NCBI GenBank assembly: GCA_963666735.1
Contig: OY762926.1
Location: 3,168,001 to 3,232,000 of the forward strand
Source of the DNA: Gemmatimonadota bacterium
Lineage (GTDB): Bacteria; Gemmatimonadota; Gemmatimonadetes; Palauibacterales; Palauibacteraceae
Length of the DNA: 64,000 nt
Direction of reading: 5' to 3'
The translations under genes and the position numbers were made by a program. The notes beneath the pieces were generated by a model that did no database searches, was not told the DNA's origin, and was given only the letters and a program-made list of their open reading frames with translations. This document shows, piece after piece, positions 9,656-57,474 of the stretch (positions are counted from its first letter, which is position 1; each line of letters starts with the position of its first letter).

Positions 9656-12241
9656 TCAGAAGTTGCTCCGATCCGCCTCACACACGGGGGCGGAGCCAAG
9701 CCACCGGGTCGCCCAGCCCGCCGGCCCGGCCGACAGCCACGCATCGCCCGCGAGCCAGTCCATGGCGGGCTCCCCGATCGGCGCGCCCGGAGGCGCGTTC
9801 GGCGTCCCCGGCATCTCGTAGGGCGCCGAGGGCTTCTCGAGGAAGCGCTCGATGTCGCGGTCGACCAGTTGCACGAACGCGGCATCGCTTTCCGGCGGCG
9901 GATTCGCCGCCATCTCGGCTCTCAGGTCCACCAGCTTTCGGGTGGCGAGGGCTCGCACGTGCGGCATGGAGGCCCCATCGGCGAGGGCCATGATGCGGTC
10001 CACGAGCACGCGGTAGGCGGCGAGCCGCAGTTCCGTGTGATAAGGCGACTCGTCGGCCTCGGGGCGGACCGCATCGACCAGCGCGGCCAGCACCTCGGCG
10101 AGCCCCGGCAGGCTCGGGTCGAGCGCGTGCTGCTGCACGAGGCGCGCGGCCCGCGACGGCTCGAGGACGCGCGACACCGTATGGTCCGCCGCCACGACCG
10201 CCGGGGTGACCGCGTCGAAGGCCGGACCCGTGTAGCGCGGGAACGTCTCCCGCGAGCGCCCGAAGCCGGGCGGCCGGGGCGGCAGCAGGTCGAGGACCCC
10301 CGCCGGAACCGCGAGTTCCCGCGGCCTCAGCGTCCTGCCCAGCGCCCGGAGCGCCGCCCGCTGCGCGTCTCCCGACACCCGCTGCAGGGGCGTCCGCCCG
10401 TCCCCGCGGAAAGCGTAGACGTACTCCTGTCCTCCGAGGAGCGAGGCGGCCGCGTCCACCTGGTAGCGGTGGTGCATGTAGAGCGGCACCAGCGCCTCCT
10501 CCACCATCGCGATCGGCCGGCCGGCGCGGATCGCGGCCTCACCGAAGCGGTCCAGCGAGTGCCGCCGCACGTCCATCATCCGTTCGAGTTCCGCCGCTGC
10601 GTCCACCCCGTTCGACCACTGGTCGGCGCGCGCATGGATGTTGATGTCCTGGTTCGTGAGGTAGATGAGATCCTCGTCCCAGGCCGCGTCCAGGATCCGC
10701 CGCAGTTCGGCGGCTTCGTCCGTCCCCTCCGGGAAGTCCGAATACCCGTACACGATCGCGACCTTGTCCCACTCGCCGATGTCCACGTCGTAGACCTCGG
10801 AATAGTCGAGCCGCCCGTCATCGTCCAGCGTCACGAGCGGATGGGGATAGTCCAGGACCGAGATCCGGCCGCGGCTGCTGTCGTAGTAGTTGTGGCCGAG
10901 GCCGAGCGTGTGTCCGACCTCGTGCGCCGACAGCTGCCGGATCCGCGCCAGCGCCCACTCCGCGATGTCCTCCGGCACCTCGTCGCCGTTCGCGTAGGGG
11001 GAGAGCAGGCCTTCGGCGATGAGGTAGTCCTGCCGCCAGCGGAGCGACCCCAGCGTCACGACGCCCTTGAGGATCTCCCCCGTGCGCGGGTCCGTGACGG
11101 AGCCGCCCGTGCTCCAGCCGCGCGTCGAGCGGTGCACCCAGTTGATCACGTTGTAGCGGACGTCGTGCGAACTCACGCCATCCGGCAGCATCTCCACCCT
11201 GAAGCCGTCACGGAACCCGGCCGCCTCGAACGCCTGGTTCCACCACCGCGCGCCCTCCAGAAGCGCCGTCCGGATCGGCTCCGGCGCCCCCGGATCCAGG
11301 TAGTAGACGATCGGCTCTACGGGCTCGCTCATCTCCGCCGCTGGATCCCGCTTCTCGAGCCGGTGCCGCCGGATGAACCGCACGCGCATGTCCTCGCCCA
11401 GCGGCGCCGAGTAGTCGGCATAGCTCATGGCGCCGTACCCGGCCCTCGAGTCGAACGCCCGCGGCGTGTACTCCCCCAGCTCCGGCAGTTGCACGAAGGA
11501 ATGGTGCAGCCGGATCGTCGCCGCCTCACCCGTCGAAGCCACGTTCCCGACCCCCTCGAATCCGCCGCCGCCCCCGAACCCGCCGAAGCCTCCGCCACCC
11601 CCCGGCTGCCGGACGAAGGTGAGCGAGGCCTCGATCTCCGTGTTTTCGGGGAACCCCATCGTCATGGGCAGGTGCACGGCGCTCCGGCCCGCGTCGAACC
11701 GGTACGTCCCCGGCCGCAGCCGCTGCGCCCAGTTGATCATGTCCCGGACCACGAAGTCCGTCGCGTCGACGAGCACGCGCCCGTCCGTCTCCGCCGCCGC
11801 CGTGAAGCCCCACAGCGTGGAGGGCGCGAAGGCGTCCGTCACCGCCTGCACCTCGCGCGGGTTCGGGCTGCTCGCCCGGAAGTCGAGGTTCGGCTGGATC
11901 ATCAGCACCTTCGGCCCCACCCGGTGGAAGCGTACGAGTCGGGATCCGGAGAGCGCCCCGCGGTCGAGGCCGATGTCGTTCGACCCCAGCCCCGAGGCGA
12001 GCCCCGTCATGTGGAGGATGTCGGTGTCCCAGCGCGAGATCTCCAGCCACAGCTTGCCGCTCGACGCTTCCCAGTACATGGGGATGAAGCCGTCGATGGC
12101 CCGCATGGAAGCGGTCTTGTCCTCGATCGACGGGAGTCCGCCCCCGGAGTCCTGCGCCACGATCGAAGCGGGACCGAGGACGAAACCGAGGACGAAGAAA
12201 AAGACGGGAAGAAGCTTCCGGAAACGGGTCGCGGAGTACAC
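9656..12241 (-). CDS. Zinc-dependent metalloprotease (DUF5117/EcxA-like)
   Basis: HEVGHTLGLGHNY zincin motif, EPIVYYLDP, DPRTGEIL; signal peptide. Confidence 0.9.
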   Translation of the reverse strand: MYSATRFRKLLPVFFFVLGFVLGPASIVAQDSGGGLPSIEDKTASMRAIDGFIPMYWEASSGKLWLEISRWDTDILHMTGLASGLGSNDIGLDRGALSGSRLVRFHRVGPKVLMIQPNLDFRASSPNPREVQAVTDAFAPSTLWGFTAAAETDGRVLVDATDFVVRDMINWAQRLRPGTYRFDAGRSAVHLPMTMGFPENTEIEASLTFVRQPGGGGGFGGFGGGGGFEGVGNVASTGEAATIRLHHSFVQLPELGEYTPRAFDSRAGYGAMSYADYSAPLGEDMRVRFIRRHRLEKRDPAAEMSEPVEPIVYYLDPGAPEPIRTALLEGARWWNQAFEAAGFRDGFRVEMLPDGVSSHDVRYNVINWVHRSTRGWSTGGSVTDPRTGEILKGVVTLGSLRWRQDYLIAEGLLSPYANGDEVPEDIAEWALARIRQLSAHEVGHTLGLGHNYYDSSRGRISVLDYPHPLVTLDDDGRLDYSEVYDVDIGEWDKVAIVYGYSDFPEGTDEAAELRRILDAAWDEDLIYLTNQDINIHARADQWSNGVDAAAELERMMDVRRHSLDRFGEAAIRAGRPIAMVEEALVPLYMHHRYQVDAAASLLGGQEYVYAFRGDGRTPLQRVSGDAQRAALRALGRTLRPRELAVPAGVLDLLPPRPPGFGRSRETFPRYTGPAFDAVTPAVVAADHTVSRVLEPSRAARLVQQHALDPSLPGLAEVLAALVDAVRPEADESPYHTELRLAAYRVLVDRIMALADGASMPHVRALATRKLVDLRAEMAANPPPESDAAFVQLVDRDIERFLEKPSAPYEMPGTPNAPPGAPIGEPAMDWLAGDAWLSAGPAGWATRWLGSAPVCEADRSNF

Positions 12242-42869: not shown

Positions 42870-43050
42870 CTACACAGCCTACGATGCTCCAGCAAGATCT
42901 CATGTTGTCCAATGTAGTCCGTAACACGCTGATATGCAGCGTGTTAGATCCCTGCGGGAGGCAATGGCCCCGGCGCGGACATGGACGGCCCCGGCGGCCG
43001 ATCGCCTTCGGGGCGAGCGATCCGGCCGCAGGTCTCAGTCTCATTGGGGC

Positions 43051-43647
43051 TCAGAACGAGACGTATCCGCCCATCTGGAAGCGCTCGTCGGACTCGTCGA
43101 CATGGAGGATGAACCGCGCCCCGTAGCGCCGTCCGAACGTCAAGCTCGCACCGGCGGTCGGCTCAACGTAGTCGCTGCCGTCGTAGTGGATCCCCACGCG
43201 GAACCTCGGGCGAACGAGCCAACTGGAACGTCCAAGCAGGACCGAGGCGCCGATATGGTTGCGCGATCCGGCCTGTCGAAACAGAGGGATGGCGATCCCG
43301 GTCATGCCGCCCAGGTCCGTGACGTAGGGGCCGGCGCACCGGTAGGTCTCCACCATCCCGTACAGCGACACCGGCCCCGCGACCCGCCCGTTGATGCCGA
43401 CGTATTGTCCGGGACACTGGTTGTCCCCCACGATCCCGGCTTCGAGCATGAAACGGCGCGCTGCCTCCCGACGGTCCGGTGCCTCCTGCCCCCAAACCTG
43501 CGAGGGCAACACCGCCAGGCACGCCAACGACAGCCAGAAGACATGAGTACGCCTTGCCCCAATGCTGATTCTACCGGCTGGCTCCACGGAGTTGGCGAAC
43601 TCCCCGGCGGCGTAGCGTCGTCGCCAAGCTCTGGCGAAATCGAACAT
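43051..43647 (-). CDS. Hypothetical exported protein, possibly a small outer-membrane beta-barrel
   Basis: RBS GAGGAG, signal-like segment, alternating beta pattern, C-terminal YVSF. Confidence 0.55.
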   Translation of the reverse strand: MFDFARAWRRRYAAGEFANSVEPAGRISIGARRTHVFWLSLACLAVLPSQVWGQEAPDRREAARRFMLEAGIVGDNQCPGQYVGINGRVAGPVSLYGMVETYRCAGPYVTDLGGMTGIAIPLFRQAGSRNHIGASVLLGRSSWLVRPRFRVGIHYDGSDYVEPTAGASLTFGRRYGARFILHVDESDERFQMGGYVSF

Positions 43648-44355
43648 GGTGGTCTCCTCGCTTCACCTGAGGTCGTTCTCTGAGCGCCGTCGCCGTTCGG
43701 GCATCTCGACGGTCAAGACCGACACTTGAGAGCTGGCGGCGCATGTCAGCCCGCGATAGAGGGGAATCCCTGAAACCAGCTGTGGGATCACCCGGAAAAC
43801 TCGCCGCTTCGGCAGCGTTCGCGGTCAGGTAGTTCGCCCGCTTCCGGCTGGCCGCGCCAGTCGTCGGAGGTTCCCCCGCCGACCACCAATCACCACCGGC
43901 CGCGGCCGTCGAGTCGGGGCCGAGCCTCCTTCCCAACCCAGCAATAGCCCGGTCGTGCGCGGCGTGACGCGCCCGGGACCTGCGCTGGACGAGGGATGGC
44001 GGGCATGTCCGCTCCCCTGCGCCCGTCCTCGTGGGAGATGGAAGAGCGACACCTTGCCGGTTGCTCGGTCGCCATCGAAGGCGAACCCGTCAGGAGTTCG
44101 AGACCAACGGCTGGCCCGAACGCTGACGGCCCTCACGTCTCATAGCGTCTCAGGTATTCCCATCCATCCATCCATCAAGGTGTGTTTTTCTCCGCCTACT
44201 TCGACGCAAACGCCCGCTCTGCCGCTATCGCGCTCTGTGGAGCTGTCCCGCTTTCACGGACGGTTAGTTTCTGTGGTTGATCGCCTCCGGTTCTTCTCCT
44301 TTCAGCCTCCCTCAGGCGCTCGGGAGAGGATGTCGGTGTGCGCCGCGGGTGCGCC

Positions 44356-45204
44356 TCAGGCCGCATGGTTGCTCTCGTAGTCGGCCGGCGACTCGTAGCC
44401 GAGTGCCGAGTGCAGCCGCCGGGTGTTGTAGAAGCCCTCGATGAAGCCGAAGACCTCCCGTCGCGCCTCGTCCGCCGTGCGGAACGAGCGCTTCCAGATC
44501 AGCTCGCACTCGAGGGTGGCGAAGAAGCTCTCGCACATGGCGTTGTCGTACGCATCGCCCGCCGAGCCCATGGACTGGGCGATGCCCGACTCGCGGCAGC
44601 GCTCCCCGAAGGCGAGCGAGGTGTACTGCGAGCCCCTGTCGGAATGATGCACGACACGACCCTCGGGACGACGCCTTGCGAGAGCCATCGCCAGCGCGGT
44701 CTCGACGAGCTCGGTCCGCATGTGCGTCGCCATGGCCCAGCCGACGACGCGGCGGCTCCAGACGTCGAGCACGACGGCCAGATACAGCCAGCCAGCCCAC
44801 GTGGGGACGTAGGTGATGTCGGCCACCCACAGCTCGTCGGGCCCCGAGGCCGAGAAGTCACGGTCCACCAGGTCCGGCGCGGGGCGGGCCTCGGCATCCC
44901 TCTTCGTCGTCGCCGTCTTGAAGCGCCGCCTGGTCGCGCCCTCGATCTCCAGCCCCCTCATCAGCCGCCCCACGCGCTTCTGCCCCACCCGCTCGCCCTC
45001 GGCCCTGAGCGCCGCGTGGATCCGCGGACGGCCGTACGTCTCGCCGCTGCCGGTCCATATCTTCGCGATCCGCGCCTCCAGTTCCGCGTCCCGACGCGCG
45101 CGGTCCGAGGGAGGACGCCTCAACCAGTCGTAGTAGCCGCTGGGGGAGAGACCCAGCACCCGGCACATGGCCCGAAGCGGGAACTCGGCCCGGTGCGCCC
45201 TCAT
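44356..45204 (-). CDS. IS3 transposase OrfB (DDE integrase core)
   Basis: WVADITY, HHSDRGSQY, DNAMCESFF, YNTRRLHSALG. Confidence 0.95.
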   Translation of the reverse strand: MRAHRAEFPLRAMCRVLGLSPSGYYDWLRRPPSDRARRDAELEARIAKIWTGSGETYGRPRIHAALRAEGERVGQKRVGRLMRGLEIEGATRRRFKTATTKRDAEARPAPDLVDRDFSASGPDELWVADITYVPTWAGWLYLAVVLDVWSRRVVGWAMATHMRTELVETALAMALARRRPEGRVVHHSDRGSQYTSLAFGERCRESGIAQSMGSAGDAYDNAMCESFFATLECELIWKRSFRTADEARREVFGFIEGFYNTRRLHSALGYESPADYESNHAA

Positions 45205-45515
45205 GAACGCATACCCCCGCCGGGGATCGATCCGCTCTCCCTCGCGAACCAGGCCGCGGCTTTTTTTAGGATGTCGCGCTCCATCCTGAGCCGCTTGTTC
45301 TCCCGCTCCAGGCGCCGCAGCTCGCTGCGCGCCTCCGTTGTCAGCCCGTCGCTACGGAACCCCTCGTCCACATCCGCCTGCCGGACCCAGTTCCGGATCG
45401 TCTGCTCCGACGGCTCGAACTTCCGGGCGAGTGACGCGGCACTACGCCCGCCCCTCACCAGTTCCACCAGCCGCTCCCTGTACTCGGATGGATACCGCCC
45501 CTTCCGGCCCGCCAT
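45201..45515 (-). CDS. IS3 transposase OrfA (HTH + leucine zipper)
   Basis: Y..EYRERLVELV, TIRNWVRQ, ILKKAAAWF; A7G slippery site at 45260-45267. Confidence 0.93.
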   Translation of the reverse strand: MAGRKGRYPSEYRERLVELVRGGRSAASLARKFEPSEQTIRNWVRQADVDEGFRSDGLTTEARSELRRLERENKRLRMERDILKKAAAWFARESGSIPGGGMRS

Positions 45516-45589
45516 GGAACACCTCCTTGCTTGACCCCAATGGATAGGTGTCCGTCAAAGCGGGGCAACTCCACTGCCGCTACTGGCCG

Positions 45590-48460: not shown

Positions 48461-51277
48461 GTGAGCGAGGATGGAGGCCGCGCCGCCGGGGACGGCGGCT
48501 GGGTTGCGGACGGCTACAACGCGGGGTACGCGGAGGGGCTGGTCGAACGGGCGCTCCGCGACCGGGGTGTGATCCCGCCCCCACTGGCGGGCTGGGATCC
48601 GTCGGCCGGGGCGGCCATTGAAGCGCCACCGGGGACGGCACTTCCTGCCCCTCCCCCCGCTCCTCCCCCGCCCGAACCCACGCCTGCCGAGGCGGAGGTC
48701 GTGGCGACGGAGGACCTGCGGCTCGCCGCCATCGCCGGGGCGCTCGTCGAGGCCTACCGGGCGTACGGGCACCTCGGAGCGCGCATCGACCCGCTCGGCT
48801 CCGAGCCCCCGAGGCACCCGCTGCTCGAACCGGACTACCACGGCATCCGCCGCGAGGAACTCGCGCGCGTGCCCGCCTCCGCAGTCTGGCTGAAGCACCT
48901 GGGCAACAACGCCGCCGAGGTCATCGACCGCCTCGAGGAGATCTACTGCGGCCCGATCGGCTACGAGCTCGACCAGATGGAGAACCCGACCCAGCGCGAC
49001 TGGCTCGTGGATTACATCGAGTCGCACCGCCACCGGCTCCTCATGAGCCGCGTGCGGGCGACGGCGTGCCTCGAGTGGCTGACCCGCGTGGAAGGGCTCG
49101 AGACGTTCCTGCACCGCACCTACCTCGGGAAGAAGCGCTTCTCCGTCGAGGGACTCGACATGCTCGTGCCCATGATGCGCGGGATCATCGGGAGCGCGGG
49201 GCGGCGCGGGGCGCGGCAGGTGTTCGTGGGTATGGCGCATCGCGGGCGCCTGAACGTGCTGGCCCACGTCATGGGACTGTCCTACGAGTCGATCGTGGCC
49301 GAATTCGAGGAGCAGGCCGCGCGAGGCATCATGACCGCCCTCCCGGAACACGGCTCCGGCGACGTCAAATACCATGTCGGCGGCCGGTCGCAGGTCGCGG
49401 AGGACGAGGTCGAACTGGACGTGCGGCTCGCCCCCAACCCGAGCCACCTCGAGCACGTGAACCCCGTCGTCCTCGGCATGGCCCGGGGGGCGCGCTTCAC
49501 CGGCGAGGCCTCCGACTCCTCGGCCATTCTCCCGATCATCATCCACGGCGACGCCTCCTTCGCGGGACAGGGGGTCGTGGCGGAGACGCTGAACCTGTGC
49601 CGGCTGCGGCCCTACGAGACGGGCGGCACGCTCCACATCATCACGAACAACCAGCTCGGCTTCACCACCCTTCCCGGCGACAGCCGCTCCACGCGGTATG
49701 CAAGCGATCTGGCGCTCGGCTTCCGGCTCCCGGTCGTGCATGTGAACGCGGACGACCCCGAGGCGTGCATGGCCGCCGTGCGGCTCGCCGTCGACTACCG
49801 GTTCGAGTTCGGGGAGGACCTGGTCATCGATCTCGTGGGCTACCGGCGCTACGGGCACAACGAAGGGGACGAACCCTCATACACCCAGCCCATGATGTAC
49901 GAGCGGGTCGCCTCGCACCCGCGGGTGCGCGCGCAGTTCGCGGAGGCCGTCATCGAGCGGGGGCTCATCTCCCGTGAGGAGGCCGACGACATGGTCGCGG
50001 GTGTGGAGGCGGAACTGGAAGCGGCCAGGGGGGCGATCGCCGCGCACAAGGAAACGGACGAGCAGACGGGGGCGGCGCCGGACCCGAAGCGGCTGTTGGA
50101 TCCGGCGGAGCCGGCGCGGCCGACCGGCATTCCGGAGGCGCGGCTGCGGGAACTCAACGAGGCGGTCCACCGCTGGCCCGAGGGCTTCACGCCCTTCCAC
50201 AAGCTGGGGCGCCAGCTGGAGCGACGCCGTGCCGCGCTGGATGCGGGGATCGACTGGGGGCATGCCGAGGCGCTCGCGCTGGCGGGCCTGCTCACCGAGG
50301 GCGTCCCCGTGCGCCTCACCGGCGAGGACACCGAACGCGGCACGTTCAGCCACCGGCACCTCGTGCTGCACGACGCCGAGGACGGACGCTCGCACACGCC
50401 CCTGGCCCACATCGAGGAAGGGCAGGCGGCCTTCAGGATCGCGAACAGCCCGCTGTCCGAGATCGCCACGCTCGGCTTCGAGTACGGCTTCTCCACGATC
50501 GCCGCCAACGCGCTTGTCATGTGGGAGGCGCAGTTCGGCGACTTCGCCAACGTCGGGCAGGCAATCATCGACCAGTTCATCGTGTCGGGCCGCACCAAAT
50601 GGGGGCTGGAGTCGCGGCTCGTCCTGCTCCTGCCGCACGGCTACGAGGGGCAGGGACCGGAACACTCGAGCGCCCGGCTGGAGCGCTTCCTGCAACTGGC
50701 CGCCGAGGGCAACATCCGCGTCGTGAACTGCACGACGCCCGCGCAATTCTTCCACGCCCTGCGCTGGCAGGCGCTACGGGCGACCTGTCGCCCCCTCATC
50801 GTGATGACGCCCAAGAGCTTGCTGCGCCACCCGCGCGCCCGCTCCACCATCGGCGACCTCACCGGCGGCGCCTTCCGCCCGGTTCTCCCGGACCCCGACT
50901 TCCAGGCCGATCCGTCGCGCGTGAGCCGGGTCATCGCGTGCAGCGGCAAGGTCTACTTCGACCTGCTCGCCGAGTCTCCCCCCGCGCACGACATCCCGAT
51001 CCTGCGCGTGGAGCAGCCCTACCCGTTCCCGGCCCTGGAACTTGGAGCCGCCCTTGCGCCGTATCCTGAAACGGCAGAAGTCTGCTGGGTGCAGGAGGAA
51101 CCGGAGAACATGGGGGCATGGACATACATGCGACCGCACCTGCGAGAACTCATCGGCCGCGAGCCCATCTACATCGGCCGCCCCGAGCGCGCCAGCCCGG
51201 CAGAGGGCTATTTCGGCAAGCACATGCGGCGCCAGCGCCGCCTGCTCCGCACCGCGCTCAGGTTGCCCGAGGAGTAG
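48461..51277 (+). CDS. sucA: 2-oxoglutarate dehydrogenase E1
   Basis: KRFSVEG, GMAHRGRLN, GDVKYH, NPSHLE, HGDASFAGQG, YRRYGHNEGDEP, WEAQFGDF, GPEHSSARLER. Confidence 0.97.
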   Translation: MSEDGGRAAGDGGWVADGYNAGYAEGLVERALRDRGVIPPPLAGWDPSAGAAIEAPPGTALPAPPPAPPPPEPTPAEAEVVATEDLRLAAIAGALVEAYRAYGHLGARIDPLGSEPPRHPLLEPDYHGIRREELARVPASAVWLKHLGNNAAEVIDRLEEIYCGPIGYELDQMENPTQRDWLVDYIESHRHRLLMSRVRATACLEWLTRVEGLETFLHRTYLGKKRFSVEGLDMLVPMMRGIIGSAGRRGARQVFVGMAHRGRLNVLAHVMGLSYESIVAEFEEQAARGIMTALPEHGSGDVKYHVGGRSQVAEDEVELDVRLAPNPSHLEHVNPVVLGMARGARFTGEASDSSAILPIIIHGDASFAGQGVVAETLNLCRLRPYETGGTLHIITNNQLGFTTLPGDSRSTRYASDLALGFRLPVVHVNADDPEACMAAVRLAVDYRFEFGEDLVIDLVGYRRYGHNEGDEPSYTQPMMYERVASHPRVRAQFAEAVIERGLISREEADDMVAGVEAELEAARGAIAAHKETDEQTGAAPDPKRLLDPAEPARPTGIPEARLRELNEAVHRWPEGFTPFHKLGRQLERRRAALDAGIDWGHAEALALAGLLTEGVPVRLTGEDTERGTFSHRHLVLHDAEDGRSHTPLAHIEEGQAAFRIANSPLSEIATLGFEYGFSTIAANALVMWEAQFGDFANVGQAIIDQFIVSGRTKWGLESRLVLLLPHGYEGQGPEHSSARLERFLQLAAEGNIRVVNCTTPAQFFHALRWQALRATCRPLIVMTPKSLLRHPRARSTIGDLTGGAFRPVLPDPDFQADPSRVSRVIACSGKVYFDLLAESPPAHDIPILRVEQPYPFPALELGAALAPYPETAEVCWVQEEPENMGAWTYMRPHLRELIGREPIYIGRPERASPAEGYFGKHMRRQRRLLRTALRLPEE

Positions 51278-51525
51278 ACGCTCTCAGGGCCATCGACCTC
51301 GGCCGCTCGGAACCCTTCCGAGAGTTGATCGGCGCGGGTCCCGTAAGAAGAAATCCCTGCAAGCACATGCGGCGATCCCCATCTCTTGACGCCCGGCGCG
51401 CCCGCACGGGAAGTTGGTGCCGCTCCACGAGAAGCTGTTGAACCTCGGCACTCAGCAGAGCGTAGATGCCGGAACGGTTCGGTGACGCACTCGAGATGGC
51501 TACGCTGGCGAAGGAGGTCTCTAAC

Positions 51526-52923
51526 ATGCGCGATGATCGGCCGGACCACGGAGCTACGCCGGAGGACTCGAACGGGGATAGCCTCCGTTGGATCGAGGAC
51601 CCGAACTGGAGTCCCGGTTGGCCGGCCCAGTACGCCCGGGAAGCCGGTGGCCAGTGGACCGCCGCACACCGCCGGCTGATCGCCAAGCTTCGCGCCGAGG
51701 GTGCACAGTACATCAACCGGAAGCTGGACAACCTCCGCTCCCAGCTCGGTGTCCCTCACAACGGCTGGACCTTCGACCGGACTCAGGGCCCCGCTCAAGT
51801 CGTCATGGACGCCCAGGATGCATTGAAGCGTCTCCAACTTCGCGCTCAGGCCAACCGGACCGACAGGCAACGACTCCGCGATTTGCCCTCACTCGCGACC
51901 CCCGTATCCGAGGGACCGCGCAAACCGACCACTCAGGAGTGGTGGAAGCTTTCGGCCATTCTGGGCGTCTGCATCGCGATCGAGGCTGTTGCGAACAGTT
52001 ATCTGCTGGCGTCGGCGTTGACCACCGGCCTCGTCGGCGCCTTCATCACCGCCATCGTGGTCTCCTTCCTGAACGTCGGAGCCCTCGGCGCCGGCATCGG
52101 CCTGCTGTTGTCGGCGCTCCGCCGCCGGGCGGCCCAGAACGGTCTGTTCTATGGTTGCGTGGCTGCGTGGGGAGCCGCCGCTCTCCTCCTCAACCTTCTC
52201 GTTGGCCGGCACCGGGAGGCGTTTGCCCGCCTGATCGACGCGAGAGAGGAACAGATGAGCGCCGCCATCGAAACGAATATGGCGACGGCCACCGAGATGG
52301 CGTCGACGATTCCCTATATCCCGTCATCGTGGCAATTCGAATCGCTCCTCTTCTTCTGCCTCGGCATCGCGCTCTGCGTCTTCGGTTTCTTCAAGGGATA
52401 TACGTTTATCGGAGCGGGAGATCCGCATCACGCGCGACGCGAACTCGACAACGAGAAAGCAGCGATTCTGAGCGAGTACCACTCGCTGTCCGAGCGCTAC
52501 CGGGGGCGCTTGACCCAGGAGCTGCGGGCGAGCGTCGCGGGGTGGGTCGAGACCCTGGACCAGGCATGGCAGAACGCGATCAACGAACAGGAGGACCTGA
52601 AGGCCAATTGGTCCGGGGGGTCGCTGCTGGCGCGAGTGGAGACGCTGTTCATAGCCGCCTACAACGACTCGCATGCGACGAAGATCGATCAGGCGATGCT
52701 CGACGAACACCGGGACCAGGCGGACATCGACATTTCCTTCCCCGCGACACCGGCGGACGAGCAGGTGCCCGACGATGCGCGTGACATCATCCGCAGATGG
52801 ACCGACACGGACCAGAAGGCGTTCTTCGAGGACATCCACGAGCAAACGAGGGCGGTCGACGGAGTCTGGACGGACTACAGACCCTTGATCGTGGATGAAC
52901 TGGCCGGAACCGAACAGTCATGA
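51526..52923 (+). CDS. Hypothetical multi-pass membrane protein with coiled-coil segments
   Basis: AAGGAGG RBS before ATG 51526; about 4 hydrophobic helices; long open frame coupled to the next gene. Confidence 0.7.
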   Translation: MRDDRPDHGATPEDSNGDSLRWIEDPNWSPGWPAQYAREAGGQWTAAHRRLIAKLRAEGAQYINRKLDNLRSQLGVPHNGWTFDRTQGPAQVVMDAQDALKRLQLRAQANRTDRQRLRDLPSLATPVSEGPRKPTTQEWWKLSAILGVCIAIEAVANSYLLASALTTGLVGAFITAIVVSFLNVGALGAGIGLLLSALRRRAAQNGLFYGCVAAWGAAALLLNLLVGRHREAFARLIDAREEQMSAAIETNMATATEMASTIPYIPSSWQFESLLFFCLGIALCVFGFFKGYTFIGAGDPHHARRELDNEKAAILSEYHSLSERYRGRLTQELRASVAGWVETLDQAWQNAINEQEDLKANWSGGSLLARVETLFIAAYNDSHATKIDQAMLDEHRDQADIDISFPATPADEQVPDDARDIIRRWTDTDQKAFFEDIHEQTRAVDGVWTDYRPLIVDELAGTEQS

Positions 52924-53713
52924 GTTCGACATCGGACGCGGGCAGTGGATCGTCGCTGCTTTGGAAGGGCATCCTCGTCGTCATCGTCCTCGGTCTGTTC
53001 TACGCGGGGTATCGACTGTGGTACGCCGACCAGCTCCGGGTCCACTATGCGGATGGATTCTGCCCCCGGGGAACGTGGCCTCAGGAGCGGGAGGGCGTGG
53101 TCGTCCCCGGGCATACGGTGATCCTGATCGACACGTCGGATGAGATCACGCCGGAGGATGCGGAGGCGGCATTCGACCGGATCGACCATTGGTCGCGCGA
53201 TACCTCCAGGCCCCGTTCCTGCAGAAGATATCCATCTACGGCCTGCCGGAGTCGATGGCGGCGATGCCGGAACAGAGCGGGCGGTCGTGGTGCATCCCCA
53301 GGCCCGGCGCCATGGCGAACGTCCTGTATGAGAACCCCAGAGCAGTGGAGATCGAGTTCCGGCGGTTCCTGCGTGGCGTGAAGACGGAACTCGATTCCCT
53401 GAGGCAGAGGGAACAGGCGGCACAATCCCCCATCGCGGAGACGATGGCGCACCTCGCGCAGCAGCACGAAGATCTCGACTCGTTCGTGCTGGTTTCGGAC
53501 ATGCTGCAGCATTCGACGCTGGCGACGCACTATGGTGGCGATACGTCCCTGACGCCGGAGGCCAGGAGCGAGTGCGAAACGATGTCAGGTGCAGGTCGAC
53601 TGAGGTCCGTGTGGGTGTACTACGTCGACCGGAAACTCGAGGTGCAGGGTAACCTGTGGCCCACGGCCTGGTGGGCCGAGTGTCTCAATGGGGTCCAGGC
53701 ACAGACTCTTTGA
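52920..53713 (+). pseudogene. Membrane-anchored vWA-like protein split by a 1-bp frameshift
   Basis: TM, VILIDTSD in one frame; QSPIAE and VLVSDMLQHS in another; adding one C at 53203-53204 gives a 264-aa ORF. Confidence 0.65.
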
Positions 53714-53732
53714 GATGTGACCTTGAGAGGGC

Positions 53733-53801
53733 GGGTCAGCGGCCCCGGGTCTGGATCGTCTGCTTCATGTCCGAGAGTTCGGAGACCACCTTCTGGTGGA
53801 G
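53733..53801 (-). repeat. Diverged copy of the 3' end of the gene ending at 57024 (matches 57021-57089)
   Basis: 7 mismatches in 69 nt by manual alignment; LHQKVVSELSDMKQTIQTRGR* versus LHQKVVSELSDMKRTIQTRIR*. Confidence 0.9.
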
Positions 53802-53877
53802 CCCTGCGGAGGGATATTTCGGCAGGCACGTGCGGCGCCAGCGCCGCCTGCTCCGCACCGCGCTGCGTCTGGACTGA
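53800..53877 (+). repeat. Diverged copy of the sucA 3' end (matches 51194-51277)
   Basis: SPAEGYFGRHVRRQRRLLRTALRLD* versus SPAEGYFGKHMRRQRRLLRTALRLPEE*. Confidence 0.92.
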
Positions 53878-54323
53878 AACGCGCGCCACGGGCCGCTTGG
53901 CTTGAAACCGCCGGCCGCTTGATAGCACCTTGATCTGCAGCTGGAGGTTCTTGGGACCGAGGCTTCGGCCGGTGGGCCGCTTGCCGCACGGAACCTCCAA
54001 CGGGAGTCGTCAGAGGATGGGGCTGGATGTGATCATCGCGCTCGTTACCATATTCGTGGCTATCGTCGGCGTCGGCGTCACGCTGGCTGGTCTCACGCGC
54101 AAGCTCGGAGAGAACATCAACGGTGTACGCGACGAGCTTCGGGGCGACATCAACGGTGTACGCGACGAGCTTCGGGGCGACATCAACGGTGTACGCGATG
54201 AGCTTTGGAGCTGTCCCGCTTTCACGGACGGTTAGTTTCTGTGGTTGATCGCCTCCGGTTCTTCTCCTTTCAGCCTCCCTCAGGCGCTCGGGAGAGGATG
54301 TCGGTGTGCGCCGCGGGTGCGCC

Positions 54324-55172
54324 TCAGGCCGCATGGTTGCTCTCGTAGTCGGCCGGCGACTCGTAGCCGAGTGCCGAGTGCAGCCGCCGGGTGTTGTAGA
54401 AGCCCTCGATGAAGCCGAAGACCTCCCGTCGCGCCTCGTCCGCCGTGCGGAACGAGCGCTTCCAGATCAGCTCGCACTCGAGGGTGGCGAAGAAGCTCTC
54501 GCACATGGCGTTGTCGTACGCATCGCCCGCCGAGCCCATGGACTGGGCGATGCCCGACTCGCGGCAGCGCTCCCCGAAGGCGAGCGAGGTGTACTGCGAG
54601 CCCCTGTCGGAATGATGCACGACACGACCCTCGGGACGACGCCTTGCGAGAGCCATCGCCAGCGCGGTCTCGACGAGCTCGGTCCGCATGTGCGTCGCCA
54701 TGGCCCAGCCGACGACGCGGCGGCTCCAGACGTCGAGCACGACGGCCAGATACAGCCAGCCAGCCCACGTGGGGACGTAGGTGATGTCGGCCACCCACAG
54801 CTCGTCGGGCCCCGAGGCCGAGAAGTCACGGTCCACCAGGTCCGGCGCGGGGCGGGCCTCGGCATCCCTCTTCGTCGTCGCCGTCTTGAAGCGCCGCCTG
54901 GTCGCGCCCTCGATCTCCAGCCCCCTCATCAGCCGCCCCACGCGCTTCTGCCCCACCCGCTCGCCCTCGGCCCTGAGCGCCGCGTGGATCCGCGGACGGC
55001 CGTACGTCTCGCCGCTGCCGGTCCATATCTTCGCGATCCGCGCCTCCAGTTCCGCGTCCCGACGCGCGCGGTCCGAGGGAGGACGCCTCAACCAGTCGTA
55101 GTAGCCGCTGGGGGAGAGACCCAGCACCCGGCACATGGCCCGAAGCGGGAACTCGGCCCGGTGCGCCCTCAT
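54324..55172 (-). CDS. IS3 transposase OrfB
   Basis: Translation identical to 44356..45204. Confidence 0.95.
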   Translation of the reverse strand: MRAHRAEFPLRAMCRVLGLSPSGYYDWLRRPPSDRARRDAELEARIAKIWTGSGETYGRPRIHAALRAEGERVGQKRVGRLMRGLEIEGATRRRFKTATTKRDAEARPAPDLVDRDFSASGPDELWVADITYVPTWAGWLYLAVVLDVWSRRVVGWAMATHMRTELVETALAMALARRRPEGRVVHHSDRGSQYTSLAFGERCRESGIAQSMGSAGDAYDNAMCESFFATLECELIWKRSFRTADEARREVFGFIEGFYNTRRLHSALGYESPADYESNHAA

Positions 55173-55483
55173 GAACGCATACCCCCGCCGGGGATCGATC
55201 CGCTCTCCCTCGCGAACCAGGCCGCGGCTTTTTTTAGGATGTCGCGCTCCATCCTGAGCCGCTTGTTCTCCCGCTCCAGGCGCCGCAGCTCGCTGCGCGC
55301 CTCCGTTGTCAGCCCGTCGCTACGGAACCCCTCGTCCACATCCGCCTGCCGGACCCAGTTCCGGATCGTCTGCTCCGACGGCTCGAACTTCCGGGCGAGT
55401 GACGCGGCACTACGCCCGCCCCTCACCAGTTCCACCAGCCGCTCCCTGTACTCGGATGGATACCGCCCCTTCCGGCCCGCCAT
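55169..55483 (-). CDS. IS3 transposase OrfA
   Basis: Translation identical to 45201..45515. Confidence 0.93.
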   Translation of the reverse strand: MAGRKGRYPSEYRERLVELVRGGRSAASLARKFEPSEQTIRNWVRQADVDEGFRSDGLTTEARSELRRLERENKRLRMERDILKKAAAWFARESGSIPGGGMRS

Positions 55484-55821
55484 GGAACACCTCCTTGCTT
55501 GACCCCAATGGATAGGTGTCCGTCAAAGCGGGGCAACTCCACTTCGGGGCGACATCAACGGTGTACGCGACGAGCTTCGGGGTGACATCAACGGTGTACG
55601 CGACGAGCTTCGAGGCGATATCAAGGGCTTGCGCGGTGAGATGGCGACCCTGCGCGCCGAGCTTCGAGGCGACATCAAGGGTGTGCGGGCCGAACTCGGC
55701 GGCCGAATCGATGCGGTCGCCGCCGAACTGACCAGGACGCGCATAGCGGTGGCCAGGATCGAGGGCAGCGTGTTGGGCGTTCCGCTGCCGGACACCGGCA
55801 CGGATCCGGCCTGACCGGCCG

Positions 55822-56151
55822 CTACCGCTGAGCAGCGCTTCCTGACCGCAACAGCACATGGGCCCGTTCGATCTCGCGGTGGAAGCGTTCGGGGAGGCGG
55901 GCCCAATCGTGTACTTCGACGAGGAAGGGGATCGAGGAGTCCTGCAGCGCTTCGACGAATTCCGCGAAACAGCGGATTGGAATCTCTTGGAGATTCGGGC
56001 CGCGGAGCACCAGGTCGAGATCGCTGCCCTCGTGACTCCGCCCGGTGACGCGGCTGCCGTAGGCCCAGACTTCCACGTCGGGCAAGTGTTCGCGCAGCAG
56101 GGCCTCGATCACCGTCCGGTGCCGGCTCCGGAGGTGCAGCCGGTCAGCCAT
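55822..56151 (-). CDS. Minimal nucleotidyltransferase (MNT antitoxin, HI0073-like)
   Basis: AYGSRVTGRSHEGSDLDLV (GS-x10-DxD). Confidence 0.9.
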   Translation of the reverse strand: MADRLHLRSRHRTVIEALLREHLPDVEVWAYGSRVTGRSHEGSDLDLVLRGPNLQEIPIRCFAEFVEALQDSSIPFLVEVHDWARLPERFHREIERAHVLLRSGSAAQR

Positions 56152-56566
56152 CCCCCGCTTCCTCGATGGCGGATGCGAGCGCCCGGGCGTCCGCGACAAA
56201 GCCGGGCAGCAGCCGCAGCGTCGCCTCGGCGAAGTCCTTTCCGTAGTCGTGCGCGGTCTTGTTCCGGTTGTCCCTGTACAGGAGCCAGCGCTCGGCGGCC
56301 TCGACATCGATGAGGTCGTGCTTGGCGGCGTGCCTGAAGAGGTCCTTGAAGACAAGGCGGTCGGCCTGCCGGTTGCTGGCGAAGAACGCGGCGAGCCGCT
56401 TCCGAAGGAGCTTGCCGCTCTGTTCCAACACAAGTTCGAATTCCTTCACGCATGCGGCGCGAAAGATGTCGTAGGCGATATCGCCCGGCTCGCAGCGCGC
56501 CAGTTCCTCAAACGCGCGTTCCAGGCTGTCGATACAACGCCTGAGAAACGTCGTGTCGATGCTCAT
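56144..56566 (-). CDS. HEPN-domain protein (nucleotidyltransferase substrate-binding, HI0074-like)
   Basis: KEFELVLEQ, KDLFR.A, RNKTAHDY (R-x4-H-x-Y); overlaps the MNT start. Confidence 0.9.
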   Translation of the reverse strand: MSIDTTFLRRCIDSLERAFEELARCEPGDIAYDIFRAACVKEFELVLEQSGKLLRKRLAAFFASNRQADRLVFKDLFRHAAKHDLIDVEAAERWLLYRDNRNKTAHDYGKDFAEATLRLLPGFVADARALASAIEEAGDG

Positions 56567-56588
56567 GCCGGCGTGGCTCCTCCGTCCC

Positions 56589-56904
56589 TCATAACTCGGA
56601 GGGAGTGAGTAACGGGATAACTCGCCGTCCCCTCTGCCGGTAGATGTGGAAGTCGGAATCGAGCGTCATGACCGAAGCGTGCTCCGTCAACTCGACGATC
56701 CTCACCAGGCACGCGCTGCACTGGAAGACTCGGATCGGCGCCGAAGCACCGGAGGATGAACGAAGTCTCGGACAGGACCGCTTCGCAGGTAAGCAGCGGC
56801 GCCTTCAGCGTGTCGAACTGCCGTCGCGCCCAATCATGCCGCATCTCACCACGGTCGATCAGCGCGACGACGGGGCCCGTGTCAACGACTACGGTTGGCG
56901 GCAA
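56589..56904 (-). pseudogene. PIN-domain (VapC-like) toxin remnant with internal deletion/frameshift
   Basis: VVVDTGPVVALID..H..TCEAVLSE in one frame; ACLVRIVE..TLDSDFHIYR..VIPLL* in another. Confidence 0.8.
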
Positions 56905-57023
56905 CGTAGTCGGCGTCAACGAGCATGGCCTCTTCGAGCAACTCCGGGGTCGGAACTCGGAGTCGCGGTCGAGTGCTTCGCCAAGAATCTCGCGCAACTG
57001 GGGGATCCAAGAAAGCGGAGGGG

Positions 57024-57323
57024 TCAGCGGATCCGGGTCTGGATCGTCCGCTTCATGTCCGACAACTCGGAGACCACTTTCTGGTGGAGAACGCCGAGGG
57101 CCTGGCTGTTGCCGTCCTCCTCGGAGTCGGAGAGTTCCTCCAGACGCGTCTTCGCTCCATCGTACTTGCGCTCCAGCCGGTCGATCATGGCCATGATCTG
57201 CACTTTTCGGCCGGCGCGGGCCTCGCGGAGCTTCACCCTCAGCTCCTCGGCCCCTTCGCGGTACTTCTCGACCGTCGCGGTCGTCCGCTGCAGCATCTGC
57301 TCGTAGTTGTCGGAAAGCTCCAT
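57024..57323 (-). CDS. Small coiled-coil hypothetical protein
   Basis: Helical charged ORF; GAGG before ATG 57323 (alternative start 57368); its 3' end is conserved in the copy at 53733. Confidence 0.7.
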   Translation of the reverse strand: MELSDNYEQMLQRTTATVEKYREGAEELRVKLREARAGRKVQIMAMIDRLERKYDGAKTRLEELSDSEEDGNSQALGVLHQKVVSELSDMKRTIQTRIR

Positions 57324-57474
57324 CCAAACCGCCTCGGTCAAGAACTTCGCGGTGCGACGCCTCGCCACACCGGCATGGTTCGCACCGTCACCTCATACTG
57401 CCAGCATCTGAAAATAGAGGCCGGAGGCCGGCCGGGGCACCCCCTGTCGTCCGCGGGCGCCGCCGGGCTGCCGC

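Follow-up and report, generated by a model that had tools for sequence, protein, structure and literature searches.

Two alleles of an integrase-free gene hotspot, probably stacked in tandem between sucA and a coiled-coil gene of a sponge-associated Gemmatimonadota

The stretch under study, a 64,000-nt window (G000 C1:3168001-3232000; G000 is this genome, one 3.98-Mb contig from an uncultured, sponge-associated Gemmatimonadota), contains a 5746-nt interval between two convergent genes, sucA on the forward strand and a gene here called X on the reverse strand. Two blocks of cargo genes, A and B, lie end to end in this interval and are separated by a chimeric joint, in which a copy of the 3' end of X is fused to a copy of the 3' end of sucA. 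We conclude that these blocks are probably two alleles of an integrase-free hotspot, brought into tandem when a fragment from a relative entered by one homologous exchange and one end-join at a 2-nt microhomology.

A chimeric joint between two cargo blocks

The features of the interval and its flanks are listed in window coordinates.

48461..51277, + strand: sucA, 2-oxoglutarate dehydrogenase E1 (Pfam E1_dh, Transket_pyr, OxoGdeHyase_C), intact, tail LRLPEE* with stop TAG
51194..51277, + strand: sucA 3' end within the full gene, copy 1 of repeat D3
51278-53725: block A (cA1 and cA2)
51278..51465, no strand: spacer, part of allele A, covered by contigs of sequencing runs X5 and X4
51466..52923, + strand: cA1, 485-aa membrane protein of block A without known family (no Pfam or PADLOC match; 29 homologues)
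52920..53713, + strand: cA2, about 265 aa with an N-terminal transmembrane helix, block A
53726..53801, - strand: X' stub, the last 63 coding nt of X, the stop (53736-53738) and 10 nt downstream, ending TRGR*, 87% identical to 57014-57089
53800..53801, no strand: junction, AG common to both stubs (2-nt microhomology)
53800..53877, + strand: sucA' stub, last 25 codons and stop, tail LRLD* with stop TGA
53878-57023: block B (repeat-protein gene with insertion, MNT, HEPN, PIN remnant)
53930..55814, + strand: repeat-protein gene with 33-nt (11-aa) repeats, split by an IS3 element (5' part to 54205, 3' part from 55542)
54206..55541, - strand: IS3-family insertion sequence (IS) with orfA (55169-55483), orfB (54324-55172) and TG..CA ends
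55822..56151, - strand: MNT nucleotidyltransferase, antitoxin-type (Pfam NTP_transf_2), 76-80% nt identity to genomes G007 and G029
56144..56566, - strand: HEPN-type partner (Pfam, NTase_sub_bind / HepT-like)
56573..56941, - strand: PIN-domain gene remnant, about 108 nt missing at 56710-56715, C-terminal half lost
57024..57368, - strand: gene X, 114-aa coiled-coil protein, intact, ending TRIR*; copy 2 of repeat D2 is 57014-57089

A repeat search recovered the joint as the preliminary description had drawn it, with the 3' ends of both flanking genes overlapping by the letters AG. Repeat D2 pairs 53726-53801 with 57014-57089 (76 nt, 87% identity), and repeat D3 pairs 53800-53864 with 51194-51258 (65 nt, 92% identity), beyond which the sucA frame of the copy runs on to a stop at 53877, for a total of 78 nt. 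The D2 and D3 copies share the AG at 53800-53801. Block A is bracketed by the two D3 copies and block B by the two D2 copies, and the joint is at 53800/53801. Across the whole 3.98-Mb genome, the ends of X and sucA are the sole matches to the junction (E 1e-20 and 3.5e-20). D3 contains a stretch of 34 identical nt (51225-51258 = 53831-53864), and the longest perfect match between X and X' in D2 is 16 nt.

Contigs of public sequencing runs (Logan contigs of X1, X3, X10, X12 and others), aligned to the window, provide the junction-spanning sequence. Those of runs X1, X10, and X12 cover 53314-53860 and one of run X3 covers 53560-53864, all with 0 differences. The four runs belong to four different studies; one of them may be the assembly's own source, and the others are independent. 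As a 31-mer graph would predict, the bridging contigs break off within the 34 nt that are identical in the sucA end. A 248-nt contig of run X4 (53784-54038), with deletions of 1 nt and 9 nt in sucA', extends fewer than 31 letters to the left of the joint and was not counted as bridging. A strain-chimeric assembly is conceivable for a metagenome-type source in which related strains co-occur, but identical bridging contigs from four runs of four studies and a genome in a single contig contradict it, and we practically dismiss it.

The two stubs differ from the intact gene ends mostly at silent positions. The sucA' stub reads SPAEGYFGRHVRRQRRLLRTALRLD where the intact sucA reads ...GKHMRRQRRLLRTALRLPEE, and 8 of the 24 shared codons differ, six synonymously and two by K/R and M/V exchanges, both of which are seen in relatives as well. 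The tails themselves are LRLPEE*-TAG (intact) versus LRLD*-TGA (stub). X' ends ...DMKQTIQTRGR* and the intact X ends ...DMKRTIQTRIR*; here 5 of 21 codons differ, three synonymously, the other two being R>Q and I>G. For both stubs together, 9 of 13 differing codons are synonymous, at 87-92% identity to the intact ends. However, the end RIR* occurs in all 30 X genes examined and TRGR* in none (0/30). Because I>G and R>Q strike sites that in these genes are I in 30/30 and R or K in 30/30, respectively, X' has decayed, and the idea that TRGR* is an alternative functional tail has to be abandoned. The preponderance of synonymous differences speaks for a foreign origin of the stubs.

The intact X has its own peculiarity. 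Between 57062 and 57090 it carries silent differences from all relatives (GAG TTG for GAA CTC, AAA for AAG), and strain X1 differs further at positions 57075 and 57078. Silent sites in the final 70 nt of X show unusually high polymorphism.

The sucA-X interval in relatives

The interval between sucA and X is a genus-wide hotspot. Gene X, the last gene following the alternative-complex-III genes, is present in 31 of the 35 other genomes of the genus and in the one genome of the sister genus (1/1), and is absent from all 24 of the neighbouring family (0/24). We examined 29 of the 32 X-bearing loci (G018, G021, and G036 were left out), and sucA and X converge in every one (29/29). As the interval lies between convergent gene ends, insertions there would presumably disturb no promoter. 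Eleven of the 29 loci are empty, with a gap of 6-98 nt and a TAG stop in 10 of the 11; the tail LRLPEx* occurs in four close relatives, all of which have empty loci. The remaining 18 are occupied (gap 483-11615 nt), all with a TGA stop, and the tail is LRLD* in 17 and LRLS* in one. Comparison across relatives thus bore out the variable locus that had been predicted from the window. Of the two tails, LRLD* accompanies occupied loci, and outside the window LRLPEx goes with empty loci, not with a second cargo class.

Occupied loci contain a repeat protein (11/18), PIN (four), or MNT and HEPN (two), and further types are Sel1 with an M48-PDZ peptidase, an Hsp70-like/HEAT/SDR set, RCC1 with Big_2, and an AAA_14/DUF4143 ATPase. 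At least seven cargo types therefore alternate between the same flanking genes, which is the defining trait of minimal mobile elements. No integrase family was detected by Pfam in 91 cargo open reading frames (ORFs) of relatives (24 + 67 ORFs). Within the window, the Pfam scan of the ORFs likewise found no integrase, the sole recombinase-type match being the DDE transposase of the IS3 element, and searches of the interval returned no tRNA and no Rfam family, so the absence of an integrase and a tRNA claimed at the outset stands.

Several features of the relatives' loci deserve mention in their own right. Members of the sucA cluster are named Candidatus Palauibacter in the database sources. The empty loci of G006, G028, and G033 (L008 1450-1500, L022 1450-1500, and L020) have 2-3 tandem copies of a 15-19-nt unit in the sucA-X gap, which repeats the sucA tail and stop (...CCCGAGGCTTAGGG...); these units could be products of slippage or tiny stubs of the same kind. 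In five relatives (G010, G026, G013, G029, and G007; loci L044, L046, L045, L043, and L035), the hotspot holds a three-gene set of a 530-aa Hsp70-like ATPase, a HEAT-repeat protein, and a short-chain dehydrogenase.

Blocks A and B, which the preliminary description had regarded as alternative alleles of one variable locus, both occur elsewhere, whole or in parts, without stacking. The left end of block B (sucA' with LRLD*-TGA and the next 70 nt) matches G014, in which the repeat gene is the whole cargo and is 92-93% identical to that of the window on both sides of the IS. The MNT-HEPN-PIN part is 76-89% identical to G007, G029, G002, and G035. Judged by these matches, block B is typical of the genus. 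It is also decayed, with the IS3 element in the repeat gene and a PIN gene truncated after ...FGADPSLPVQ.

The counterpart of block A comes from run X5, in which a 5131-nt contig aligns to 50900-53700 with 184 other letters and 16 gaps and encodes a cA1 that is 95% identical to the window's. Past 53700 this contig has 39 other letters and then continues at 57023, immediately before the X stop, and thus represents an unstacked sucA-A-X without the joint or block B. Together with the G014 match for block B, it supports the view of two alleles of one locus. The cA1 gene varies in populations (98% and 95% identity); its cluster at >=90% identity comprises six other sequences, and five database sequences are at 98%. 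Among metagenome contigs of the Joint Genome Institute (JGI) scanned for cA1, no relative was found. Block A occurs in none of the 35 other species of the genus (0/35), the sole analogue, 27% identical, being in G035, and the spacer in front of cA1 has no homologue in 40 relatives (170 nt, 51278-51447, no significant match).

The analogous module in G035 (L042 8104-10339) occupies the same slot: a 471-aa protein, 27% identical to cA1, and its 275-aa partner stand directly after sucA(LRLD*) and are followed by Sel1, M48-PDZ, repeat protein, and PIN genes, without internal stubs.

Outside the genus, four metagenome-assembled genomes (MAGs) carry cA1 and cA2 at 84-85% nt identity, in other contexts and without gene X. 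Yet one of these MAGs, G064 (locus L061), has a 50-nt stub of the X 3' end directly after cA2, 90% identical to the X of G006, and its cA2-to-X junction is the same as that in the window. Cargo A thus once adjoined X and has travelled with a piece of it. In G064 the module (L061 9410-14803) lies beside a NikA/MobC-like ORF (10504-10842), a metallo-beta-lactamase-fold protein, and a group II intron reverse transcriptase; locus L060 shares the MobC region in rearranged position.

The cargo genes themselves gave few functional predictions. cA2 is frameshifted in the assembly near 53202 (53199-53205), but an extra C after 53202 in contigs of runs X1, X10, X4, X5, and part of X2 restores a single frame of about 265 aa, and cA2 is one open frame in the four MAGs carrying relatives; the frameshift is probably a homopolymer error or a strain variant. 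The label 'vWA-like' for this second gene of block A remains a lead only, as cA2 matches 0 Pfam families and its nearest named atlas clusters are VWA at 0.81-0.85, under the 0.9 line. A fold model of cA2 from a four-sequence alignment was unusable (predicted local distance difference test, pLDDT, 37). PADLOC assigned no defence family to cA1, cA2, the repeat protein, HEPN, the PIN remnant, or X, and gave weak matches only for MNT. The IS3 element has terminal inverted repeats and a 3-bp target duplication (CTT); judging from its 12 near-identical copies in the genome, it has been active recently. A second copy within the window (44235-45575, 99.9% identical) lies inside a stretch of about 2.7 kb (42870-45574) that is missing from G017.

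Similar scars in the genome and their likely origin

The window locus is not the only one of its kind in this genome. A genome self-comparison in 40-kb pieces yielded 141 local short direct repeats, among which we looked for pairs with the topology of the scar, that is, copy 1 of one repeat, then copy 1 of another repeat abutting copy 2 of the first within 15 nt, then copy 2 of the other. Five pairs at four loci qualified (the window locus and three sites named S1, S2, and S3). Shuffled repeats reached five pairs in 0 of 2000 trials when placed genome-wide and in 7 of 2000 when placed locally (+/-5 kb). The joints at S1, S2, and S3 have microhomologies of 1-4 nt.

S1, G000:C1:178799-180083: small stack with units of 689 and 596 nt, interiors 77% alike, stubs 90-92%
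S2, G000:C1:1218904-1223058 (L068 3905-8059): SSF symporter start, VapBC, OsmC stub, 124-aa ORF stub, SSF stub, amino-acid permease, OsmC, 124-aa ORF, DUF885
S3, G000:C1:2668230-2674472 (L069 4231-10473): gene Y end, 469-aa gene, epimerase stub, Y stub, FitA-PIN, Spondin_N, further genes, epimerase

The stubs that meet at S2 come from the side of the 124-aa ORF and DUF885 (134 nt, 87%) and from the SSF symporter start (106 nt, 92%), and the scar separates a VapBC block from an amino-acid-permease block. Similarly, at S3 an internal part of the epimerase gene is represented by a 68-nt stub that adjoins 83 nt from the 3' end of gene Y, and the scar separates the 469-aa gene from the FitA-PIN/Spondin_N block. 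Both intervals are variable in relatives, which have simpler single arrangements: SSF-(VapBC)-OsmC-ORF124-DUF885 without stubs for S2, where G017 has a different joint at the same place, and Y-(FitA-PIN)-Spondin_N-epimerase, or Y directly beside the epimerase, for S3. A wider scan added two further candidates with longer or shorter stubs (1909699-1934180 and 2532421-2536866). Other pairs from that scan were set aside as IS copies or as tandem paralogues (333.6-336.6 kb and 3572-3575 kb).

The observed product needs one exchange in a homologous flank and one non-homologous join at the AG. Starting from a resident locus sucA(LRLD*)-block B-X, a 2.6-kb fragment consisting of the last 78 nt of a sucA with the tail LRLPEE*, the spacer, cA1, cA2, and the first 66 nt of X may have been circularized by Ku-type end joining, which would create the joint of X' and sucA'. 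A single recombination of this circle within the 34-nt identical stretch of the sucA end would then leave an intact sucA with the incoming tail before block A and would displace block B along with the former 78-nt sucA end. The same product could arise from a linear fragment by homology-facilitated illegitimate recombination (HFIR), with a crossover further upstream in sucA and an illegitimate join between the free end in X and the sucA of the recipient. The circle with a single crossover, as first envisaged, agrees with the joint, whose form either a circle joint or an illegitimate join would produce, but is indistinguishable from HFIR of a linear fragment. The locus has the Campbell form, an insert between direct repeats that contains the circle joint (D3, D2, and the joint), and equally the marks of HFIR, namely duplicated homologous ends at 87-92% identity, flanks that are mosaic relative to G017, and another, non-homologous border with AG. 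The genome encodes a Ku-domain protein (G000:C1:973555-974049, E 1e-40), a family found in 1 of 14 control genomes (Bacillus subtilis), as well as homologues of ComEC and DprA.

The observed order limits a circle to block A entering via the sucA repeat or block B entering via the X repeat. We lean slightly to block A as the later arrival, because D3 offers a longer perfect match than D2 (34 versus 16 nt), block A is restricted to this species, and block B is decayed. Comparisons aimed at direction (nearest-relative scans along sucA, the last 140 nt, and profiles against G017) were not decisive. Compared with G017, the closest relative, the window shows 97.5% identity in the region 36-42.9 kb and 97.9% to the right of 57022; along sucA the value declines from about 97% to about 80%, and it recovers within X at about 57090. 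The nearest relative switches along sucA, where identity drops toward the hotspot and no single breakpoint was mapped. This mosaicism of the sucA and X flanks appears as expected if flanks hitch-hike with exchanged cargo.

Several observations weigh against this account of the locus. A homologous stretch of 65-78 nt with about 90% identity is poorly suited to recombination, and the 34 identical nt might reflect chance or a later gene conversion. The assembled contigs contain no circular or excised form, and in the seven runs with the stacked form none of them bypasses block A or B, although rare excision would escape contigs. No relative holds exactly block B, with repeat protein, MNT, HEPN, and PIN together. 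Clusters at 90% identity pool the sucA C-termini of the genus, so that the sucA of the X5 contig could not be singled out among them. Finally, in view of the A-only allele in a lineage diverged by about 6% and of the old export of cargo A to G064, A might have been the resident and B an addition from the X side.

This mirror order is possible but less likely. Here, sucA(LRLPEE*)-block A-X was resident, and a fragment of sucA' (last 78 nt, LRLD*), block B, and the 3' part of X came in later. Entry would have been either through homologous exchange within X or past it, the left side being joined illegitimately, or as a circle that crossed over in the 66-76-nt X homology. It would account for the A-only locus in the related lineage of run X5 and for the old adjacency of cA2 and X, as seen in the G064 stub within a module of 85% identity. 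It would also fit the intact X, whose five differences from G017, all synonymous or silent, cluster in 57062-57090 with 98% identity beyond, as would be left by entry of B with the first ~66 nt of X. However, the perfect match between X and X' (<=16 nt) is too short for efficient RecA exchange by the circle route, cargo A is absent from 35/35 other species while parts of block B are common in the genus, and block B is the more decayed of the two through its IS3 insertion and truncated PIN gene.

The joint also has the exact topology of a tandem-duplication junction, and the interiors of S1 are 77% alike, which would suit an in-situ duplication from sucA (-78) to X (+66) with later replacement of one interior and slow divergence of the stubs. 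We consider this improbable. The blocks share no repeats besides D2 and D3 and are therefore not homologous along their length, the stubs are 8-13% diverged, mostly synonymously, with tails matching other lineages, and flanking direct repeats would be unstable over such a time. Replacement of a unit would itself need recombination in a 66-78-nt stub.

Less probable still is site-specific accretion by a recombinase encoded elsewhere, in the manner of cis-mobilizable elements (CIMEs), with the sucA-end repeat as attL and attR. The D3 copies do share a 34-nt identical core with diverged arms, like att sites, and all 18 occupied loci start right after LRL followed by D*-TGA (18/18). On the other hand, neither the locus nor the scanned cargo ORFs of the 18 occupied loci contain an integrase, there is no tRNA, the genome's four junctions have no motif in common, the sequence just past the TGA differs between loci, and an att model leaves the internal X stub unexplained.

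A wider view may be offered tentatively and with considerable doubt. In this lineage, fragments of relatives' hotspot alleles with short stubs of both flanks would act as homology-addressed cassettes. Ku-type end joining would close them, a single crossover within a stub of <=100 nt would insert them, and islands would stack recurrently without an integrase, this one 4-Mb genome having four or more scars. Such cassettes might even pass out of the genus along with their stub; in G064 the module lies beside a NikA/MobC-like gene.

Comparison with known systems

The closest mechanistic parallel is HFIR, which the parts of PMC3240628 and PMC5361080 used here describe in Acinetobacter, S. pneumoniae, P. 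stutzeri, and E. coli conjugation. According to the same sections of PMC3240628, one end is joined by homology and the other at a microhomology of a few bases, foreign DNA comes to lie beside the anchor, and no integrase is involved, all of which resembles the locus described here. In contrast to those laboratory products, the window has a natural scar; the donor would be the same locus of a relative, with a stub of the opposite flank at its far end. In addition, the recipient loses nothing and a 78-nt duplication results, and a circle with a single crossover fits at least as well.

Loci of type VI secretion system (T6SS) effectors and immunity proteins, Rhs loci, and contact-dependent inhibition (CDI) loci undergo sequential displacement that leaves orphan arrays, for which HFIR has been proposed in the portion of Kirchberger et al. 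2017 (PMC5361080) considered here. There, as in the window, a new module enters at a conserved upstream gene, and the old 3' end and its cargo are pushed downstream, in their case as an orphan (PMC5361080, same portion). Unlike in those systems, the anchor is the housekeeping gene sucA and not a polymorphic toxin, the cargo is no effector-immunity pair, and Pfam and PADLOC found no such cargo families, so that the locus is not an orphan array of the T6SS, Rhs, or CDI type. In addition, a stub of the far flank is retained at the joint and marks an allele of the same interval as the donor.

Minimal mobile elements are hotspots between conserved flanking genes (Saunders & Snyder 2002, as cited in PMC3787668). 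As summarized in the excerpted part of PMC3787668, their content varies between the same two genes in close relatives and mobility genes are lacking, as in the sucA-X interval, and flank recombination is taken to account for the exchange; they are described there as replacing one cassette by another, whereas here two alleles are kept in tandem with a chimeric joint. Integrase-mediated tandem accretion, as outlined in part in PMC13651849 for CIMEs, integrative and conjugative elements (ICEs), and phage-ICE tandems, likewise gives two blocks separated by a repeat of the target 3' end. The window differs from it in having no integrase, no tRNA, and no shared att core, and its repeats are 87-92% alike, not identical.

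Word searches of the literature found no description of two-flank joints, which is no proof of absence. What distinguishes the locus from the systems above is the housekeeping anchor, the stubs of both flanks at the joint, and the recurrence of the scar within one genome. Most chromosomal gene-gain hotspots have no integrase; homologous recombination in the flanks is held to drive their turnover and as a rule leaves no mark. Here, such a mark has been kept. Because both flank stubs are preserved at the joint, the donor can be identified as an allele of the same interval; the joint indicates that the incoming DNA was a relative's same locus, reveals its break and join points, and shows that the outcome was addition, not replacement. 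Natural examples replicated in one genome, together with unstacked alleles in related populations, offer a testable route of island accretion in an uncultured symbiont.

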